64,000 nt of DNA, taken from the NCBI RefSeq assembly GCF_054482595.1, contig NZ_CM137008.1; one strand, written 5' to 3'. The notes below the pieces were generated by a model that did not search any database, was not told where the DNA came from, and was given only the letters and a program-made list of their open reading frames with translations. Within the stretch, counting starts at the first letter, position 1. Each line of letters starts with the position of its first letter. The position numbers were made by a program, and so were the translations under genes. Positions 25,753 through 47,057 of the stretch are shown in pieces.

Positions 25753-25831
25753 GCCACTGCTTTTCTTTGATGTCCCCATTTTGTGGAGCCCATCAACCCC
25801 GCCATTTCGGTTCAAGGTTGGTGGGTTTTTT
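25753..25831 (+). ncRNA. rybB: RybB small RNA (sigma-E-dependent, Hfq-binding)
   Basis: Matches the RybB sequence as I recall it (GCCACTGCTTTTCTTTGATGTCCCC...) ending in a GC-stem plus T-run intrinsic terminator; lies downstream of ybjL as in K-12. Confidence 0.85.
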
Positions 25832-26008
25832 GTTATCTAAATCCCCAAAATCTCCATTCTCTCCCCTGTCCAAAGCCTTATCTGACTGTCCTCTCTTCCA
25901 GAAAATCATTCTTTTTCGTACAAAGAACAAATAGTTATTGAGAAGCTTATTTAAAAACCTGAACAAAATCGGTAATATTCCTGGCTTTGCAATACACAGA
26001 TTTTTTAT

Positions 26009-35946: not shown

Positions 35947-36330
35947 TCAGGCCTTCTCAAGCATGGCGTGCTTCTGCAGGCTCTGGATACTCAGCGTTAA
36001 GCTCATCAGACAATTTTCAAGCTTATCGGCGTTGACGGTAATAACAGTCGGGCAATCATGGTGCCCACTCATCAAACATACTGCGGCTGTCGCTAATGCT
36101 TCTTCAGCATGATGAAGAGCACTCCACTCTTCCTGATCCAGATGAAGATTCAACCGCAGCGATTTATCGTGCAGTTCGCGATTCAGTTTAAAAAAGTTAT
36201 CTCGTAGATGATTGCTTTCGCTGACGGACATGTATCCTTTTGCCTTCCTCAGTTGCACGTATGCAGCGAGGTCAACGCGTGCGTCGATCAACCGGTTCAG
36301 CAGATCGATTCGCTGTCTGTCAACGAACAT
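35947..36330 (-). CDS. bssR: Biofilm regulator BssR
   Basis: ORF 35947..36363; start at MFVDRQRIDLLNRLIDAR gives 127 aa. Confidence 0.8.
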   Translation of the reverse strand: MFVDRQRIDLLNRLIDARVDLAAYVQLRKAKGYMSVSESNHLRDNFFKLNRELHDKSLRLNLHLDQEEWSALHHAEEALATAAVCLMSGHHDCPTVITVNADKLENCLMSLTLSIQSLQKHAMLEKA

Positions 36331-36542
36331 ACTTCGATCCTCCTCTTTCCAGCCTTGTTGCAATTAAATAGTATGGCTATTTTTTGAGCAAAATGCTGTC
36401 CAGGATCAATTCTTCACGCCGAATTAACAAAATTTACATTTCCTTCGCCTCCGCCAGCGAATGAGATTGCGATACAAATTTTATCCAGAACTCTGTAGAA
36501 TCCCTGCCCTGACCTTTCCTGTAACTGAATATTTTTTAAGCT

Positions 36543-37868
36543 ATGAGCAAAGTAACTCCCCAGCCGAAAATCGGCTTTGTTTCCCTTGGCTGTCCGAAAA
36601 ACCTTGTCGATTCAGAGCGTATTCTCACCGAACTACGCACTGAAGGTTATGACGTGGTACCGAGCTATGACGATGCGGACATGGTGATCGTCAACACCTG
36701 CGGCTTTATTGACAGCGCGGTACAAGAATCACTGGAAGCCATTGGTGAAGCGTTGAATGAAAACGGCAAGGTAATTGTGACCGGTTGTCTGGGGGCAAAA
36801 GAAGATCAGATCCGCGAAGTCCACCCGAAAGTGCTGGAAATCACCGGGCCTCATAGCTATGAGCAGGTTCTGGAGCACGTTCATCACTACGTGCCAAAAC
36901 CGAAACACAACCCATTCCTGAGCCTGGTGCCAGAACAAGGTGTCAAACTGACGCCGCGTCATTATGCCTATCTGAAAATTTCTGAAGGCTGTAATCACCG
37001 CTGCACCTTCTGCATTATTCCGTCTATGCGCGGCGACCTGGTGAGCCGTCCGATTGGCGAAGTGTTAAGTGAAGCGAAACGTCTGGTAGATGCGGGCGTT
37101 AAAGAGATTCTGGTGATCTCGCAGGATACTTCCGCCTATGGCGTTGATGTTAAACATCGTACTGGCTTCCACAACGGCGAGCCGGTAAAAACCAGCATGG
37201 TCAGCCTGTGCGAACAGTTATCGAAACTGGGGATCTGGACACGTCTGCACTACGTTTACCCTTATCCGCATGTGGACGACGTCATCCCACTGATGGCAGA
37301 AGGCAAAATCCTGCCGTATCTGGACATTCCGTTGCAGCACGCCAGCCCGCGCATTCTCAAACTGATGAAGCGTCCGGGTTCTGTAGATCGCCAACTGGCG
37401 CGCATCAAACAGTGGCGCGAAATCTGCCCGGAACTGACCCTACGCTCAACCTTTATTGTCGGCTTCCCTGGCGAGACGGAAGAAGATTTCCAGATGCTAC
37501 TCGACTTCCTGAAAGAAGCGCGTCTGGATCGCGTTGGCTGCTTTAAATACAGCCCGGTTGAAGGTGCAGACGCCAATGCCCTGCCTGACCAGGTTCCGGA
37601 AGAAGTGAAAGAAGAACGCTGGAACCGTTTCATGCAGTTGCAGCAGCAGATTTCCGCCGAGCGCCTGCAAGAGAAAGTGGGCCGTGAAATTCTGGTGATT
37701 ATCGACGAAGTGGACGAAGAAGGCGCGATTGGTCGCAGCATGGCAGATGCACCGGAAATCGACGGCGCGGTTTATCTCAATGGTGAAACCAACGTTAAGC
37801 CGGGTGATATCCTGCGTGTGAAAATCGAGCACGCCGATGAGTACGATTTGTGGGGTAGCCGGGTTTAA
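36543..37868 (+). CDS. rimO: Ribosomal protein S12 methylthiotransferase (radical SAM)
   Basis: 441-aa ORF; radical-[11 protein letters not shown] cluster; synteny. Confidence 0.9.
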
Positions 37869-37914
37869 TTATTTCAGGCCGGGCAAAATCATTTGTCCGG
37901 CCTGCGAATAATGA

Positions 37915-39243
37915 TTACTGCCAGCTAATCTGTGCCCTGCCGTTTTTCTTACTCTTATACAGCCGCTCATCCGCCAGCATTTTCAAGCGTTCGACGGTAG
38001 GACATTCATTTGAATGCGCTACACCGATACTGGTGCTTAAATTAATGCTTCCCACCTGGAAATGAACGATTTCTTTTAGAATCGATAGCAACTCTTCCAG
38101 CGTTCCACCCGTATAAATCACCGCAAATTCGTCACCGCCGAAGCGGTAGACTTTACCTTTATCTACCGGGATCTGTGATTTAAGGATTTTCACCACTTTC
38201 ATCAACACTTCATCACCCAGCAAATGACCGAAGGTGTCGTTAATGTTTTTGAATTTATCGACGTCAAACAGGCACAAATAACCGCCTTTTTCCGGCAGCG
38301 CTTTTAAATCTTCGTCAAAGGATTTTCTGCCCATTGCTTTGGTCAGGTCGTCCAGGAACGCCGAGTTATACATACTGTAGAGTTTTTTGACATCGGCAGC
38401 CGAAAAGAAAAGCCCGCCATCCAGTACGCGTTCAAAATGGTTATTAATAATGGCTTCTTTCTCCACAATACCACGATTAATCACTCTGCGTACCAGATAG
38501 AGGCAACTGGTACCCGATATCACTGCCACCAATGCGGCAAAGAAAATAATCAATGTACAAACCCGCAAATAAACATCTTTTTTATACGCAAATACGTACA
38601 ATCCGGTCGGCAAATAGGCGAAGTGCTCCATCGCTTCCGAAACGGTGAAGATGGCGTTTTTAGCATTATATTCATCACCGGTCACCGGTTTACCGTTCTT
38701 AAACAGAGAGAACATCAGGTTCTCGCTATCCATCGCCAGAGATTTTGACAGTAAAGAAAAACGCTCCAGACCAAGCAAAAATATCAGACTACGATTGTGA
38801 GTTACCGGATAGAGGTAATAGACGAAGGTTTTACCGTCAAAAGAGATAAACCCTGTATTTTTGACATGTCGATACTTCACAACCTGCATAATATCTGCAC
38901 AATAATTTTTCTCGAACTCCTTTACCTGAATACATTCGTCACTGGAAATCAGATAAGGACCGACATCGTACAAATAAGAGGGTGAAACCGAGTCGGCGTA
39001 AGCTGTGCGTAAGCCAACCAACAGCTGTTCCTCCGTGGGATTTAGCGTGTTGATAAGATCAATTGCCACGCTACGCCGATATTCAGCAATATTTGCCACC
39101 GCAAAAGCAGTATCAATAACGGACTGTTTCAGGCTATACACCCGTTCCTTTACCATTTGAGTGTAGATCCCGCAGGCAACTGCTGAAATCATGATAAAAA
39201 TCAGCAGACTGACTGTAAGTACGAACTTATTGATTCTGGACAT
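37915..39243 (-). CDS. dgcI: Diguanylate cyclase (GGDEF)
   Basis: 442-aa ORF with N-terminal membrane region and GGDEF motif RFGGDEF. Confidence 0.85.
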
Positions 39244-39250
39244 ACGTAAA

Positions 39251-41599
39251 CTACTCTTTTACTAATTTTCCACTTTTATCCCAGGCGGAGAATGGCATGG
39301 GTTTCTGGTACAGATACCCCTGAGCCTGAACACATCCTAATTTGATTAATTCGCGCGCAACGTCTTCGCTCTCTACGCCTTCCGCAATCACCGGGATCCG
39401 GTTATAGCGTGCCAGGTCGAAAATAATGCGCACAATTTTTCCCGCAGTACCGAAAATATCGCCGGTAAATTGCGAGTCCACCTTTATGCTGTCTGGATTA
39501 ATTTCATAAAAACGTTTCAGGTTTGACAAACCGGTGCCAAAGTCATCAATCGATATCCGTACCCCTTGTTTACGCAATTGTTCAATATTGAGATAAAAAT
39601 GTTCATTAATTCGTTCGATTACGGTTTCAGTGATCTCAACACAGAGGCTGTTCGCCTTCAGGCCATTTTCTTTCATAATGGTGGTAAAACGCTCATGAAA
39701 GTGTGGTTCGTTTAACTGCCAGGGCGAAACATTAATATGCAGTAAGAAATCATCCTTCAGCGACGCACGCTGACTAAAATGTCTGAATTCACCCATTGCC
39801 GTTTTAATAATCTGATAACCCAGCTCATTGATAAACCCGATATCTTCAGCAATGGTAATGAACTTCAGCGGTGAAATGATCCCCCGCTCCGCAGACACCC
39901 AACGGCACAACGCCTCCGCGCCCAGAATGGCGCGGGTGTTAATATCAACGATCGGTTGATAGACGAGGAATAGTTCGCCAATTTCCATTGCATGGCGAAT
40001 ATTACGCGCAATCCAGATATTCTCTTCTATTTCGTTGAGTTTCGCGTCATCACAGAAAATAAACTCGGAGAACATATGGTCACGGATACTGGAAATCGCC
40101 AGTTTCAGTTTTTCTGCGTAACTCCAGGCGTTTTCCCCCTGCAAAGGTTCACAAATGGCAGACTTATGGATGCGCAGATTGCGGTAGCCAAAGCTGCTGT
40201 CAAAATCGTTTACCATCGCTATTTTACGGGTAAATGTCTGTACATTTTCCCGACACAGAAGTAAATAGAGATCGGCATTGAATGTCACGATATCGCAGCA
40301 TTGTGCATATTTCTCGGCAATTCGCTGACACAATTTCCTGACGATTTTATTGCGTTCATCAACACCAAACACCGCTTCCACGGCTTCCAGACCACACAGT
40401 TTGATGATCCCCACAGCCAGATACTGATTATTGTTGGACTCAATAATCGCCATATTTTTAATAAACCCACTTTCCTGATCGTAAGAGATCAGTGAGAGCA
40501 ATTTATTTGACCGTTCAATTTCGGCATCTTTCATTTCCGCGATCGAATTTTTGATGCTGATAATCTCTTTCGCATCGCCTTCGCGAATTTTCAGAGCCTC
40601 GATCTGATCCGTTGAGTCAGGCAAAAACGCCAGCGTATTAACCAGCTCTGTCATTTCAGAAAATTGCCGACGGAACACACGAGTGGTCAGTAAATAAACC
40701 ACCAGCAATACGATAATAATGAACGCAAACGGCAGATAAAAAAGTTTATCTGATGCGTTCAATAAATTACCGCCCGGATAATAAAAATAGATTTCGAATA
40801 ATGCGTTATTTGGCACCGCTGATGTTTTTTCGATATATTCAGTATCGACAGAATCAATAATATTATAATTACCTTCGCTATTATAAATAATCAGTTTTTC
40901 ACGAGCGAGTTGATTCTTGGCAATGATCTCATGGCCTTGTTTCAAAAATAGAACTTCATCATTAGCGCTGATTTGATCAAGATACTCGTTCAGATATCGC
41001 CAGTTTAAATCGACATGAATTTTATCCACCGCTAACAAATCGTGATCTTTGCCGTTGATGCGTAGCGTAAAAGAGATACATTTTTTACCCGGACGATCAA
41101 AGCAATTGTATGCCGGATTCCAGCTGTTGTTAGAGTCATCTGAAGCCACCGACCACGGTCGTTTCGATGGGTTAAAATCGGCAAAAATAACCCGCCCTGA
41201 CTCGTCGACAAGCGGTCCATTTACTTGTTCCTGATGATAAACAACGATTTTATCGTTCGCCCTCCGCGAAAAGAGATAATATTTATTATCATCAAGTACC
41301 AGTCCCACCGAGTCTAAAAATGGCATCATTTCCATTTTCAGGATCACAGCGCGTTGAATCTCCTCTGTATTTTTTAATAAATACAGTGAGTCCTTTAATG
41401 TCAGGGCCGAACGTTCAATATCTTTAAAGAAATAGCCAACGTTTTTCTGAATAAGTTCAAAGCGGCTATCGGCACGTTTTACCGCGCGTTCCGATACCAG
41501 TTGATAGTTAATGATGAAAAAAAGGCCAATAAATGACAGTGCTGCCAATAAAAATAAAATTATCAGCCTTATCTTTATCTTTTCGTATAAACTCAGCAT
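39251..41599 (-). CDS. pdeI: c-di-GMP phosphodiesterase (EAL, periplasmic sensor domain)
   Basis: 782-aa ORF, two transmembrane segments, C-terminal EAL domain; adjacent to dgcI. Confidence 0.85.
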
Positions 41600-41775
41600 G
41601 TTAATACATTTAACAAAATAACTGTCTGAACGCTGTGCCGCTGCAAAAACAGTCCCTTGCTGCGGCTTTTAACCAAATTACCCGATTCTACAAAATCAGC
41701 AGAAAGTTACAACACTTGCTTAGGGCAATAATTTCCTGTGAGGTGATTACTCTTTCAAGCAATATTCAAACGTAA

Positions 41776-43627: not shown

Positions 43628-45166
43628 TTATTGCAAATCCGCGTCTTCAAAGCTGAAGCCGGTGTCTGGCATGATCCAAAAACCGGTCAGGTTTTTACTG
43701 TGTGCCGACACCAGTTTTTCTACCACCAGCGGGATCCACGGCGACTCTTGCCAGATGATATCCTGCGCCGCCTTATACAAGCGGGTCTTTTCCGCCGGAT
43801 CATTAGTTTTCAGTGCCTGAGCCAGGAAGTCATCCACCTGTTTATTGCTGTAAAACGCGGTATTAAACAGCGTCGGTGGCCAGTTCTGCGAGGCAAACAG
43901 CGGCGATAGTGCCCAGTCCGCTTCGCCGGTTGAAGCCGACCAGCCAGTGTAGAACATCCGCACGCCGCTCTCTTTTTGCCCTTTACCTTCAACTTCTGCC
44001 GCCCGCTGTCCGGCATCCATCGCAGTCACCTGGGCTTTAATCCCGACCTGCGCTAACTGCTGCTGGGTAAATTGCAGCACTTTCTGCGCGGTGCTGTGGT
44101 TATGTGACGACCACAGCGTGGTATTGAAACCATTGGGATATCCCGCCTCTTTCAGTAATTCGCGCGCTTTCACTGGATCGTAAGGCCACGGTTTATAACT
44201 TTGCGCGTAGGCGATACTCGGCGGTACCACACCAGTAGCTGGCGTTGCATAGCCCGCGAAGGCCACTTTCACCAGCGCCGGACGGTTAATGGCGTAATTC
44301 AGCGCCTCACGGACCTTCGGGTTATCGAATGGCTTTTGCGTCACGTTCATACTGATATAACGCTGCATAATTGACGGACTGGCCATCAACTCGATATTTT
44401 TGTTTTTCTCCAGCAGTGCGGCCTGCTCGTAAGGAATGGGGAAAGCAAACTGCGCTTCACCGGTTTGCAGCATTGCCGCGCGGGTGTTGTTATCCGCCAC
44501 CGGACGCCAGGTTATGCTGTCCAGTTTGGGCAATCCTGGCTGCCAGTAACCCGCGAATTTTTTCACCTTCACAAAATCAGTCTGATTCCAGGTATCCAGT
44601 TCATACGGTCCGGTTCCCACCGGATGAAAACCAATCTCCTTGCCATATTTTTCCAGCGCTGCCGGTGAAATCATCGCGGTCGCCGGATGGGCAAGAATAT
44701 TAATAAACGCTGAGAACGGCTGTTTGAGGGTAATCTTTACCGTTGTCGGATCGATCGCTTCCGTTTTAGCAATATTCTTATACAGGTTATAGCGTTTAAG
44801 ATGATTTGCCGGATCGCTGGCCCGGTCCAGATTCGCTTTCACCGCTGCGGCGTTGAAATCGGTGCCATCCTGGAATTTAATGCCTTCCCGCAATTTCACG
44901 GTGTAAGTAATGCCGTCATCGGAAACGGTATAACTCTCCGCCAGCACGTTTTTCAGTTTCATCTCTTTATCCAGACCGAACAGCCCCTGGTAAAACGATT
45001 TCGCTACGGCCTGAGATAACGTGTCATTCGCGTCATACGGATCGAGCGTGGTGAAATTCGATCCTACCGCCACCACCACATCTTTGGCAGCGAATGCACA
45101 AGATGCCATCAACGCTGTCGCAATGCCCAGCGCCACTAACCCACTACGGTGTACAGCTCTTGCCAT
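43628..45166 (-). CDS. gsiB: Glutathione-binding periplasmic protein
   Basis: ORF 43628..45433; start at [26 protein letters not shown] signal peptide gives 512 aa. Confidence 0.9.
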
Positions 45167-45185
45167 TTTATTCTCCGCCTGAATG

Positions 45186-47057
45186 TTATCTACGCATGAA
45201 TGCGTATTCTGATTGTGGTTGTGCGACGTAATGCCCCGGCCCGACGCATTGCAACGAGACGGGTGCAACCTCTTCGCCACGCAGATGAATATTGCTGGGA
45301 AGATCGTCCGACAGCAGTACACGCTGCGGTCGTTGTCGGGACGGTTCAGCGACCGGAACTGCCGCCAGTAATTTACGCGTATAAGGATGCTGCGGGTTTT
45401 CGAAGACCGCGCGCCGTGGACCAATTTCAACAATTTGCCCGAGATACATCACCGCCACACGATGACTAATCCGCTCTACCACAGCCATATCGTGGGAGAT
45501 AAACAGATACGCAATGCCGAAATCACGCTGGAGATCGAGCAACAAGTTGATAATCTGCCCGCGAATAGAAACATCCAGCGCCGAAACGGCTTCGTCGGCA
45601 ATGATCACTTTTGGATTCAATGCCAACGCGCGAGCAATGCAGATGCGCTGGCGCTGACCGCCGGAAAACTCATGCGGGTAACGCCAGGCATGTTCAGGTA
45701 ACAGGCCCACGCGCTCCAGCAACCACGCAACGCGTGCAACCGCTTCTTTACCTGGCAATAAACCGTGTACACGCAACGGTTCGATAATCGAATCACCGAT
45801 GGTCTGACGTGGGTCCAGCGAAGCGTAAGGGTCCTGAAAAATAAACTGAATATCGCGGCGCAATACCTGAAGTTTGCCGGGTGACAAGGTATCGATTCGC
45901 TGACCGTTAAAGATAATTTCGCCGCCCTGCGATTCGACCAGGCGCAGCAACGCCCGCCCGGTAGTGGATTTACCGCTGCCAGACTCGCCCACCAGCGATA
46001 GCGTTTCGCCAGGCCAGAGATCAAAACTGACTTTCTCAACGGCATGCACTTCCCGCGTTACGCGATTCAACAAACCGCTGCGCAAAGGGAAACGGGTGAC
46101 CAGATTACGCACCCGTAAAACAGGTTCGCCATCCACCACCGTTTTCTGCTCGATGGGGGGTTCCTGTTTCGCTGGATGTTCAAGCGATATCAACGGGAAA
46201 CGTCGGGGATAATCTAACCCTTTCATCGCACCAAGTTGCGGAACAGCAGCTAACAGCGCACGGGTGTAAGGATGTTGCGGTGCATGAAAAATCTGTTCGA
46301 CGGTACCCGTTTCCACCGCCTCGCCCTGATACATCACCAGTACCCGATCGGCAATCTCTGCCACCACGCCCATATCGTGAGTGATAAAGATAACGCCCAT
46401 CGACATCTCTTTTTGCAATACTTTGATTAATTGCAGGATCTGCGCCTGAATAGTGACATCCAGCGCGGTGGTTGGCTCATCGGCAATCAGCACCGCCGGG
46501 CGGCATGACAGCGCCATCGCAATCATCACTCGCTGGCGCATCCCGCCAGAGAGTTGATGCGGATAACGTGAAAGAATGGTTTGTGCCTCCGGAATGCGTA
46601 CCTGATCCAGCATCCGCTTCGCCTCGACCATCGCTTCTTCACGACTGGCGTTTTGATGCAGACGAATTGATTCGGCAATCTGTTCACCCACAGTAAATAC
46701 CGGGTTCAGCGATGTCATCGGCTCCTGAAATATCATCGCCATATCCGCACCGCGCACATGACGCATTTGTGCAGCGCTCTGCTCGCTAAGTTCAATCACT
46801 TCACGACTGCGCCGCCGCAACAGCATTTTATCGCACTGTACTAAACCGCCCGCCTGTTCCAACAGACGCATCAATGCCAGCGCAGTCACTGACTTACCGG
46901 AGCCGGATTCGCCAACAATTGCCAGCGTCTCACCGCGTTGCAGGCTAAAAGAGAGATTGCGGACCGCAGCTATTTTCTGCTGGTCCTGCATAAAGGCAAT
47001 ATTAAGATTTTCAACCGCCAGCACATTACCGGCATCAAGTTCATCACTGTGTGGCAA
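45186..47057 (-). CDS. gsiA: Glutathione ABC transporter ATP-binding protein (two ABC domains)
   Basis: ORF 45186..47165; TTG start at 47057 gives 623 aa beginning (M)PHSDELDAG; two Walker A motifs GESGSGKS. Confidence 0.8.

Follow-up and report, generated by a model that had tools for sequence, protein, structure and literature searches.

The pdeI and dgcI genes, adjacent on one strand of a 64,000-nucleotide stretch of Escherichia coli DNA (referred to here as the window; contig NZ_CM137008.1 of RefSeq assembly GCF_054482595.1), probably form a two-gene cassette for two membrane enzymes of c-di-GMP metabolism, the phosphodiesterase (PDE) PdeI and the diguanylate cyclase (DGC) DgcI. In the model that we favour both are inner-membrane proteins with unrelated periplasmic sensors, and the two periplasmic inputs would set the balance between the making and the breaking of c-di-GMP at the membrane. 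Furthermore, between its sensor and its EAL domain PdeI carries a dead GGDEF-fold domain that may have a LapD-like role in regulation or autoinhibition.

Identity and layout of the locus

The locus is E. coli pdeI-dgcI (yliE-yliF; b0833 and b0834 in K-12), real and intact, and the pair is already known, its genes having been named, annotated and studied. The region is 100% identical at the DNA level to several E. coli chromosomes annotated with pdeI and dgcI (e.g. XH990 and O157:H16 Santai). Of the 5426 complete E. coli genomes, 5425 matched the region and carry annotations for both genes, and at least 80% of a 4.5-kb query was matched in one piece in 5380, a figure that describes nucleotide match and not the integrity of the reading frames. 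The window differs from K-12 in three residues only (H180R and M304L in PdeI, A245T in DgcI), and the 7-bp junction as well as the flanking gsiD and rimO genes are identical in K-12.

39251-41599, minus strand: pdeI (yliE) coding sequence, 782 aa (ORF list, RefSeq annotation, Pfam CHASE9 and EAL, AF2 model, fold searches)
39244-39250, minus strand: intercistronic gap TTTACGT, 7 bp (sequence; same in K-12; no stable structure)
37915-39243, minus strand: dgcI (yliF) coding sequence, 442 aa, downstream of pdeI (ORF list, annotation, Pfam, AF2 model)
36543-37868, plus strand: rimO, convergent to dgcI, between dgcI and bssR
35947-36330, minus strand: bssR (Pfam YliH, E 2.5e-82), about 1.6 kb from the pair

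The gene identities, coordinates, shared strand and 7-bp separation given in an earlier sequence-only reading of this DNA proved exact against the ORF list, the junction sequence and Pfam. To its layout it can be added that the shared strand is the minus strand and that pdeI is the upstream gene, the stretch from its stop to the dgcI start reading GAG TAG tttacgt ATG. The same reading had mentioned bssR as nearby; a link to it is not supported, as bssR lies beyond the convergent rimO and outside the unit. No known RNA family was matched at the locus, the only Rfam matches of the window, RybB and naRNA4, being elsewhere.

Probable transcription unit

Co-transcription of pdeI and dgcI, which had been proposed from the 7-bp spacing, is strongly suggested in silico by the shared strand, the short gap, the hairpin pattern and the conserved tight junction. 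The junction folds with just -6 kcal/mol, leaving no stable hairpin between the genes, a strong hairpin follows dgcI, and the two genes are equally close together in E. albertii (gap of 7 bp) and nearly so in E. fergusonii (9 bp). The single transcript would most likely start in the gsiD-pdeI spacer and end at the hairpin before rimO.

41685-41712, minus strand: candidate sigma-70 promoter TTGTAA, 16-nt spacer, TAGAAT (consensus scan 9/12; predicted)
37868-37912, no strand assigned: strong hairpin within the 46 bp that separate the stop codons of the convergent genes dgcI and rimO

The candidate promoter is situated in the 176-bp spacer between gsiD and pdeI, and E. albertii and E. fergusonii share the block that holds it, with TAGAAT invariant. 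Folded on the dgcI strand the hairpin has a calculated energy of -21.3 kcal/mol (z -4.7), and folded on the rimO strand one of -27.4 kcal/mol (z -7.6), and none of 200 shuffles was as stable; no U-tract follows it. It is likely to be a bidirectional 3'-end or terminator structure. Terminator-like matches within the genes were no commoner than in shuffled sequence. A weak Shine-Dalgarno-like AAGAG is found inside the end of pdeI, 10 nt ahead of the dgcI ATG, and because of this weak ribosome-binding site and the 7-bp gap the translation of dgcI may be coupled to that of pdeI.

A putative sigma-54 promoter upstream of pdeI (41642-41657, AGGGACTGTTTTTGCA) was rejected, being not conserved in E. 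albertii and deleted in E. fergusonii; matches to the pattern over the whole window also fall short of the number expected from shuffles. A literature search for operon naming of the pair gave nothing relevant.

PdeI: sensor, dead GGDEF fold and EAL domain

In the AF2 model of PdeI (mean pLDDT 87) a first transmembrane (TM) helix is followed by a periplasmic dCache/CHASE9 sensor, a second TM helix, a helical HAMP-like linker, the dead GGDEF-fold domain and an active-type EAL domain. The hydropathy scan gave a periplasmic domain of about 255 aa between the two TM helices. The sequence-only reading had recognized the EAL domain and the large periplasmic sensor; its account of the domain content was incomplete, the dead GGDEF-fold domain having gone unseen.

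41510-41566, minus strand: PdeI TM helix 1, aa 12-30 (Kyte-Doolittle 3.1; within model helix 2-71)
40745-41503, minus strand: PdeI periplasmic sensor, aa 33-285, double-Cache fold (Pfam CHASE9 at aa 35-150)
40688-40744, minus strand: PdeI TM helix 2, aa 286-304 (hydropathy 2.89; opens model helix 282-324)
40487-40687, minus strand: PdeI cytoplasmic helical linker, aa 305-371, HAMP-like/signalling helix (model helices 282-324, 332-335 and 344-371)
40025-40486, minus strand: PdeI degenerate GGDEF-fold domain, aa 372-525 (fold searches, in-register BLAST alignment)
39299-40006, minus strand: PdeI EAL domain, aa 532-767 (Pfam EAL E 1.3e-69; full catalytic residue set)

The sensor has the dCache_1 layout, namely a long N-terminal helix and then two PAS-like modules, flanked by the two TM helices. 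All ten of the distant profile matches that were scanned are dCache_1 proteins, two of them with dCache-GGDEF-EAL architecture. At the curated threshold of Pfam dCache_1, E. coli PdeI was unmatched and gave CHASE9 only, and the paralog in cassette L006 reached 28.8 bits against a cut-off of 45. Seven residues of the sensor are invariant in the family (R147, W149, W160, Y164, C166, C174 and D197). A CSS-motif domain was absent from the periplasmic region by Pfam, which reported CHASE9 instead; PdeI does have an invariant periplasmic cysteine pair (C166/C174), but in a domain different from that of the CSS-domain redox-controlled PDEs (PdeB/C/D/G/N type). The linker had no match to Pfam HAMP, and it is labelled HAMP in a preprint (10.1101/2025.05.09.653004). 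Sequence searches for solved-structure relatives of the PdeI or the DgcI sensor gave no significant match, and kinship between the two periplasmic domains was rejected (hhalign probability 0.3%).

According to its predicted structure, the middle domain of PdeI is a catalytically dead GGDEF fold. This assignment is based on the fold evidence together with the in-register BLAST alignment; hhalign of the domain against GGDEF gave a probability of 0.6%, and Pfam returned nothing even at E 10. In the family alignment the position of the GGDEF motif is occupied by NADLY (441-445) in PdeI and by NADLY, SSDLY, STETY, NKNKY or SPYKY among the variants of the family, the metal- and GTP-binding positions are replaced, and the RxxD site is absent. 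An RxxD or GTP-binding function was rejected, since the residues are missing. G412, located at a one-residue break between two helices of this domain, is family-invariant, and dN/dS of the domain against E. albertii is 0.074; purifying selection and an invariant G412 together argue that the dead domain does something.

The EAL domain, judged by its residues, is the intact site of an active-type c-di-GMP phosphodiesterase. The catalytic set E562-A-L-C-R566, N623, E655/E658, D685/D686, K706, E740/E743 and Q760 is invariant across six members of the PdeI family, and a published residue table gives the full EAL consensus for YliE (PMC3484386). Loop 6 keeps the DFGTG core but has L for the Y and N for the second S of the canonical DFG(T/A)GYSS; this L691 is family-invariant.

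DgcI: GAPES2 sensor and cyclase domain

DgcI had been described as a cyclase with a membrane N-terminus, which understates its structure, since Pfam and the AF2 model give the order TM1, periplasmic GAPES2 domain, TM2, long helix and GGDEF domain, and the hydropathy scan places two TM helices around a periplasmic domain of about 200 aa.

38557-39168, minus strand: DgcI periplasmic GAPES2 domain, aa 26-229 (Pfam GAPES2 E 1.6e-143)
37933-38361, minus strand: DgcI GGDEF domain, aa 295-437 (Pfam E 7.9e-25; GGDEF at 369-373)

E54-Y55-R56-R57, P88, Y90, Y92, C104 and C115 of the GAPES2 domain are invariant in the DgcI family. The AF2 pLDDT over this domain is only 40-76, and in the PDB no relative of it was found by sequence and none was visible by fold.

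The alignment predicts a complete diguanylate cyclase active site, with D327, D329, K332, N335, D336, H340, D344, R367, GGDEF 369-373, K432 and R436 invariant in the family. The RxxD I site is common in GGDEF cyclases and not obligatory; five residues before the GGDEF of DgcI this product-inhibition site is absent, V-D-K-G standing in its place. The published residue table agrees with the intact motif and lists the I site of YliF as non-consensus (PMC3484386). Alignments with PDB entries likewise support the catalytic sites of the pair. In Shigella, dgcI gave the highest c-di-GMP of four DGCs in a GG-motif-dependent manner (PMC11327459). Degenerate catalytic motifs had been named beforehand as the observation that would speak against the pair; on alignment both the GGDEF of DgcI and the EAL of PdeI were intact.

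Relatives, origin and selection

Independent searches found relatives of the cassette in Escherichia and its plasmids only, the exceptions being a single paralog that bears the label Salmonella enterica and two contigs that are probably contaminants. The PDE-then-DGC order recurs in seven cassettes, 29-43% identical, whose junctions measure -11 to +9 bp; in the paralogs the extremes are an overlap of 11 bp and a gap of 9 bp. Identity of the plasmid and accessory cassettes to the window proteins is 29-39% for PdeI and 34-43% for DgcI, and the ranking of the paralogs by identity to the E. coli proteins is the same for both partners (L012 > L006 > L009 > L014). Since the adjacency is kept in E. 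albertii, E. fergusonii and the diverged paralogous pairs, it is not a matter of chance.

In L012 the cassette is directly followed by bcsA-bcsB-bcsC and in L017 by BcsA- and BcsB-sized ORFs, and on plasmid p40EC-3 bcsA starts about 0.8 kb downstream of it. The cassettes of L009 and L014 have no bcs neighbours, and their flanks hold plasmid, IS or sugar-use genes. Cellulose synthase genes are also missing beside the chromosomal copy, which has been reported as weakly expressed.

The GC content of the two genes is 41.7% and 43.3% versus 52-54% in the flanking genes, and that of the paralog cassettes is 33-35%. The cassette looks like an AT-rich acquisition of horizontal origin in the Escherichia lineage. 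It is plausible that the ancestral cassette served to control a PilZ-gated cellulose synthase locally, because some diverged copies are located directly upstream of accessory bcsABC operons. The PDE-then-DGC cassette would be a mobile unit, rich in AT and in some cases joined to an accessory operon for cellulose synthase, and this bcs link of the paralogs offers a concrete, testable output for the pdeI-dgcI pair.

Both genes are under purifying selection: dN/dS against E. albertii is 0.058 for pdeI and 0.047 for dgcI, and it stays below 0.11 in each domain.

Activity of PdeI and alternative readings of the pair

Overexpressed pdeI strongly blocks c-di-GMP-dependent infection by phage N4, as five other PDEs do (PMC7553319), which points to lower c-di-GMP, at least locally. 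Antagonism of the two enzymes, as proposed in the sequence-only reading, is plausible; the proposal is contested, however, by an eLife study in which PdeI overexpression increased c-di-GMP 11-fold and G412S abolished the rise (PMC11651652), a result that a simple PDE role does not predict. Since the GGDEF-fold domain of PdeI is devoid of every catalytic residue, the published claim of c-di-GMP synthesis by PdeI cannot hold as stated, and any rise must be indirect. An autoinhibitory dead GGDEF would explain the altered PdeI output in the published G412S change. On the side of DgcI, none of the protein could be detected in K-12 in standard conditions (PMC5635695), and laboratory cultures may therefore seldom show the balance model at work.

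GGDEF domains function as dimers, and this is in line with a reading, in our opinion unlikely, in which PdeI is not a net PDE in the cell but a sensor or trigger protein, c-di-GMP rising with its abundance through the activation of a cyclase (in the simplest case DgcI) via membrane or GGDEF-GGDEF contacts, so that the pair is cooperative. It accommodates the roughly 11-fold rise, the single-cell correlation of PdeI with c-di-GMP and the loss of the effect in G412S (PMC11651652), the selective retention of the dead GGDEF (dN/dS 0.074) with its invariant G412, and the co-inheritance of pdeI and dgcI in seven of seven cassettes; furthermore, GG-to-AA DgcI still altered Shigella invasion, a hint of protein-protein effects (PMC11327459). 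Against this, the GGDEF-like domain of PdeI, in which each of the catalytic and GTP-binding residues is missing, is not the 'synthetase' of PMC11651652, its EAL site is fully intact and invariant, N4 resistance arises as with five other PDEs (PMC7553319), and the presumed partner is undetectable in standard K-12 culture (PMC5635695). In a more speculative proposal, which we regard as distinctly improbable, PdeI and DgcI might constitute one heteromeric membrane sensor, the dead GGDEF or the membrane/periplasmic parts of PdeI docking on DgcI, with the cyclase turned on and the EAL autoinhibited, while the dCache pocket (R147, W149, D197) would sense a small ligand of amine/amino-acid type and the invariant periplasmic cysteine pairs of both proteins would add a redox input. 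If true, more PdeI could mean either more or less c-di-GMP, depending on the setting, which would reconcile the two contradictory published PdeI results.

Little credence can be given to independent regulation, in which dgcI would be driven from a promoter of its own (perhaps a sigma-54-dependent one) within the 3' end of pdeI and the enzymes would serve unrelated pathways. In vitro genomic SELEX did reveal an RpoN-holoenzyme binding peak near the junction, between yliE and yliF (PMC8743547), so dgcI could have its own promoter, and a TGGCAC-containing sigma-54-like site is found in pdeI at 39524-39539; at this site, however, the conserved -12 GC is missing, and the protein accounts for the sequence of the site, since the conserved DDFGTG motif is encoded there. 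Across the whole window the sigma-54 pattern was matched less often than expected (275 times against a shuffle mean of 335), and sigma-70-like matches in the genes equalled the shuffled expectation (9 versus 8.9). PdeI was not among the undetectable proteins, whereas DgcI was (PMC5635695), and Shigella flexneri reportedly retains an intact dgcI (PMC11327459), but a tight junction and gene order kept at 29-43% identity are hard to explain without functional coupling. We find it hardly credible that a cassette gained by horizontal transfer persists here as a cryptic and decaying remnant without present function in E. coli. The AT-rich composition, a dgcI expression in K-12 that is very low or below detection (PMC5635695), the truncated protein clusters present in databases and the loss from the chromosomal copy of the bcs neighbour of some paralogs would fit such a history. 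They have to be set against deletion and overexpression phenotypes (PMC3484386, PMC11327459, PMC7553319) and the raised expression reported in CFT073 at 37 C (PMC12890032). Moreover, the catalytic residues are all invariant, dN/dS is 0.05-0.08 for both genes across all domains, and the nucleotide match to at least 80% of the query (which is not ORF integrity) extends to 5380 of the 5426 complete genomes. Decay is largely refuted by the selection analysis.

Comparison with known systems

For the make-and-break pair that we favour, the established E. coli precedent is dosCP (dgcO-pdeO), where a DGC and a PDE are likewise encoded in one operon. PdeO/DosP, the top full-length Foldseek match to the PdeI model, resembles PdeI in having a degenerate GGDEF before an active EAL. 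In dosCP, however, the DGC gene comes first, and the sensors are cytoplasmic haem domains (globin, PAS) in contrast to membrane proteins with periplasmic dCache/GAPES2.

LapD-type receptors are built from a periplasmic domain, HAMP, S helix, degenerate GGDEF and EAL. Unlike PdeI they have no dCache sensor, and the EAL of LapD has no catalytic activity and serves as a receptor that binds c-di-GMP, whereas that of PdeI keeps every catalytic residue.

YliE/YliF-like cassettes have been described in a preprint beside accessory cellulose synthase clusters (bcsA2-4; 10.1101/2025.05.09.653004), and these share with the window copy the two-protein architecture, the PDE-then-DGC order, the tight junction, the catalytic residues and the AT-richness. 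Plasmids or chromosomal sites other than the present one carry these cassettes, some of which lie directly upstream of bcsABC, a neighbour that the window copy does not have. In the cdg1-3 operons of Komagataeibacter xylinus, as far as the work of Tal et al. 1998 is relayed in PMC6559022, pdeA stands upstream of dgc and the products control c-di-GMP for cellulose synthase. Their proteins differ, as described there, being cytoplasmic PAS-GGDEF-EAL isoenzymes of an alphaproteobacterium whose sequence relationship is shown for the catalytic domains only; the arrangement, to the extent covered by that account, parallels both the gene order of pdeI-dgcI and the bcs association of its paralogs.

Identity and layout of the locus

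The adjacent cyclase and phosphodiesterase (PDE) genes singled out by the sequence-only reading are real and were correctly identified, yet they are known already; the same locus is b0833-b0834 of K-12. Several E. coli chromosomes, in which the genes are annotated as pdeI and dgcI and are flanked by gsiD and rimO, matched a 4.5-kb query spanning the pair at 100% identity. The query was matched in 5425 of the 5426 complete E. coli genomes, and at least 80% of it lay inside one match in 5380 of them. Relative to K-12 MG1655, PdeI carries H180R and M304L and DgcI carries A245T, while the junction is identical.

Features of the locus
39251..41599 (-), pdeI ORF, 782 aa (ORF list)
37915..39243 (-), dgcI ORF, 442 aa (ORF list)
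pdeI-dgcI gap, 7 bp, GAG TAG tttacgt ATG (sequence across the junction)
37868-37912, both strands, hairpin in the 46-bp space between the convergent dgcI and rimO stops (fold energy)
35947..36363 (-), BssR/YliH ORF (Pfam)

The coordinates, the 7-bp gap and the domain calls of that reading (GGDEF cyclase, EAL phosphodiesterase) were right, because the ORF list (exactly), the junction sequence and Pfam agree with them: PdeI (782 aa) consists of CHASE9 and EAL, and DgcI (442 aa) of GAPES2 and GGDEF. The large periplasmic sensor attributed to PdeI was confirmed, being flanked by hydrophobic helices at aa 12-30 and 286-304, whereas DgcI, described as having a membrane N-terminus, also possesses two such helices (aa 8-26 and 224-242) around a large periplasmic segment. 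The gene order had to be mended, pdeI being the upstream gene, and bssR cannot be kept as an associated neighbour, as the convergent rimO intervenes. The interpretation as a co-transcribed antagonistic module is partly supported.

Sensor and degenerate GGDEF domain of PdeI

The PdeI sensor profile gave only 51 matches among 1.84 billion representative proteins. Pfam dCache_1 was present in all ten distant full-length matches scanned, two of which have the architecture dCache-GGDEF-EAL. R147-P-W149 and D197, which are invariant in the family, align with RPWY and D motifs in a dCache of solved structure, an alignment not significant by itself.

Residues 372-525 were detected neither by Pfam nor by hhalign, therefore the assignment of this region as a GGDEF fold rests on the predicted structure, according to which it is one. 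BLASTP against a PAS-GGDEF-EAL protein ran in register through 372-525, with NADLY opposite GGDEF; across the family this position reads NADLY, SSDLY, STETY, NKNKY or SPYKY. The metal and GTP positions, assigned by a manual register consistent with the BLASTP alignment, are K400, E405, E408, A409, V413 and N417, and RxxD is absent from the domain in the family alignment. So modelled, the domain is incapable of c-di-GMP synthesis and probably does not bind GTP. G412, the site of the published G412S allele, is invariant in the family and is the single residue separating helices 404-411 and 413-431 in the model.

Both periplasmic sensors contain a cysteine pair, C166 and C174 (8 residues apart) in PdeI (window 40745-41503) and C104 and C115 (11 residues apart) in DgcI (window 38557-39168), invariant even though identity among family members is only 24-36% over these domains. 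The pairs may form disulfides; if so, they would hint at a common periplasmic redox input resembling that of the CSS-domain PDEs, of which PdeI is not a member by Pfam.

Distribution, paralog cassettes and selection

Escherichia was the only genus to yield full-length PdeI orthologs (E. albertii 88%, E. fergusonii 70%, E. marmotae 92% over a partial sequence), and the order gsiD-pdeI-dgcI-rimO is kept in E. albertii (7-bp gap) and E. fergusonii (9-bp gap). In E. albertii an additional 237-aa gene with faint Pfam HEAT-repeat matches (locus L005, 9672-10385) lies between dgcI and rimO, convergent with dgcI and overlapping its end by 14 bp; it is absent from E. coli and E. fergusonii.

Full-length DgcI paralogs are 39-43% identical, and roughly 100 plasmids of E. 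coli carry one. All paralogs examined are immediately preceded by a PdeI-like gene (770-782 aa), the two genes ranging from overlapping by 11 bp to lying 9 bp apart.

Paralog cassettes (locus, source, junction, context)
L012, E. ruysiae, 4-bp gap, bcsA-bcsB-bcsC directly downstream
L017, E. coli E69, 3-bp gap, BcsA- and BcsB-sized ORFs downstream
L006/L013, plasmid p40EC-3, 11-bp overlap, bcsA ~0.8 kb downstream
L009, 9-bp gap, plasmid or IS context
L014, 4-bp overlap, plasmid or IS context
L019, 5.6-kb contig of a MAG labelled Sporosarcina psychrophila, PdeI-like and DgcI-like pair, longest ORFs overlap

A 2025 preprint (10.1101/2025.05.09.653004) had already reported the association with bcs and described the architecture as CHASE9-Cache-HAMP-xGGDEF-EAL. 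In E. ruysiae a GAPES3-GGDEF-EAL gene (L012 19208-21196) closes the cassette-bcsABC cluster, so that a single cellulose synthase is surrounded there by three proteins of c-di-GMP turnover.

By identity to the E. coli proteins the paralogs rank alike for both partners, as would be expected under inheritance as a unit. When one genome from each of 100,044 species was scanned with the GAPES2 profile, relatives appeared only in Escherichia and on two contigs, L019 and a 249-bp contig of a Nocardioides assembly (L020) whose sequence matches E. coli dgcI at 100% identity. Contamination with Escherichia DNA is the most likely source of both contigs.

The GC content of the pair (41.7% and 43.3%) changes sharply at its boundaries to the 52-54% of the flanking genes, and the paralog cassettes have 33-35%. 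Against E. albertii, dN/dS (Nei-Gojobori) was 0.058 for pdeI and 0.047 for dgcI, below 0.11 in every domain and 0.074 in the degenerate GGDEF, while the dN of the pair was two to fifteen times the gsiC, gsiD and rimO values. At these rates both genes evolve quickly but are clearly maintained.

Transcription signals and proposed mechanism

The sole Shine-Dalgarno-like sequence for dgcI, AAGAG, lies within pdeI, and no stable fold is predicted across the junction (-6 kcal/mol). Promoter-like and terminator-like matches within the two genes were no commoner than in shuffled sequence. The promoter-like match TTGTAA-16-TAGAAT in the 176-bp gsiD-pdeI spacer belongs to a block that E. albertii and E. 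fergusonii have conserved, whereas a sigma-54-like site in the same spacer was rejected as not conserved. The hairpin downstream of dgcI (-21.3 kcal/mol, z -4.7 on the dgcI strand; -27.4 kcal/mol, z -7.6 on the rimO strand) has no U-tract on either side and is a candidate bidirectional 3'-end structure.

Published work shows that Shigella dgcI gave the top c-di-GMP level among four cyclases, and that its GG-to-AA mutant lost synthesis but retained an invasion phenotype (PMC11327459). Deletion of yliF (dgcI) in CFT073 raised bladder-cell adherence (PMC3484386), expression of both genes in this strain was reported to be higher at 37 C (PMC12890032), and no DgcI protein could be detected in K-12 (PMC5635695). 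The evidence on PdeI conflicts: its overexpression, like that of five other PDEs, abolished plating of the c-di-GMP-dependent phage N4 (PMC7553319), whereas an eLife paper, which terms it a synthetase, reported that c-di-GMP rose 11-fold on overexpression (PMC11651652). Since the anatomy of PdeI excludes synthesis of its own, any such rise must be indirect.

The best supported reading, which we favour as probably correct, is that of a make-and-break cassette, its two genes co-transcribed and its two periplasmic sensors unrelated. Cooperation in a complex, with PdeI activating the cyclase, is considered rather unlikely. Independent regulation from an internal promoter is more doubtful still; such a promoter of dgcI may exist, because an in vitro RpoN-holoenzyme binding peak was published near the yliE/yliF (pdeI/dgcI) junction (PMC8743547). 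This peak may originate from a sigma-54-like site inside pdeI, TGGCACCGGTTTGTCA (window 39524-39539, -), some 290 bp ahead of the dgcI start codon, which has a perfect -24 element, lacks the -12 GC of sigma-54 promoters and codes for the conserved DDFGTGLS motif. That the locus is a decaying remnant is very improbable, being contradicted by the selection data.

In the make-and-break cassette the degenerate GGDEF of PdeI would serve as a regulatory module placed between sensor and EAL, and a PilZ-gated cellulose synthase is a plausible ancestral output. LapD has a similar domain order, but PdeI retains a catalytic EAL. The dosCP operon likewise pairs a diguanylate cyclase (DGC) with a PDE. In the cdg operons of K. 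xylinus pdeA lies upstream of dgc, the same PDE-before-DGC order, and the pair governs cellulose synthesis (PMC6559022). Unlike both systems, the pdeI-dgcI products sit in the membrane and carry dCache and GAPES2 sensors in the periplasm.

Other features of the window

In the mechanical ORF list bssR (35947-36363, -) and gsiB (43628-45433, -) begin at upstream TTG codons and measure 138 and 601 aa; the annotated proteins have 127 and 512 aa, therefore the longer ORFs are calling artefacts and not real extensions. Two RNAs unrelated to the pdeI-dgcI locus were matched by Rfam, the sRNA RybB (25756-25834, +, 104 bits) and naRNA4 (9685-9765, -, 72 bits).
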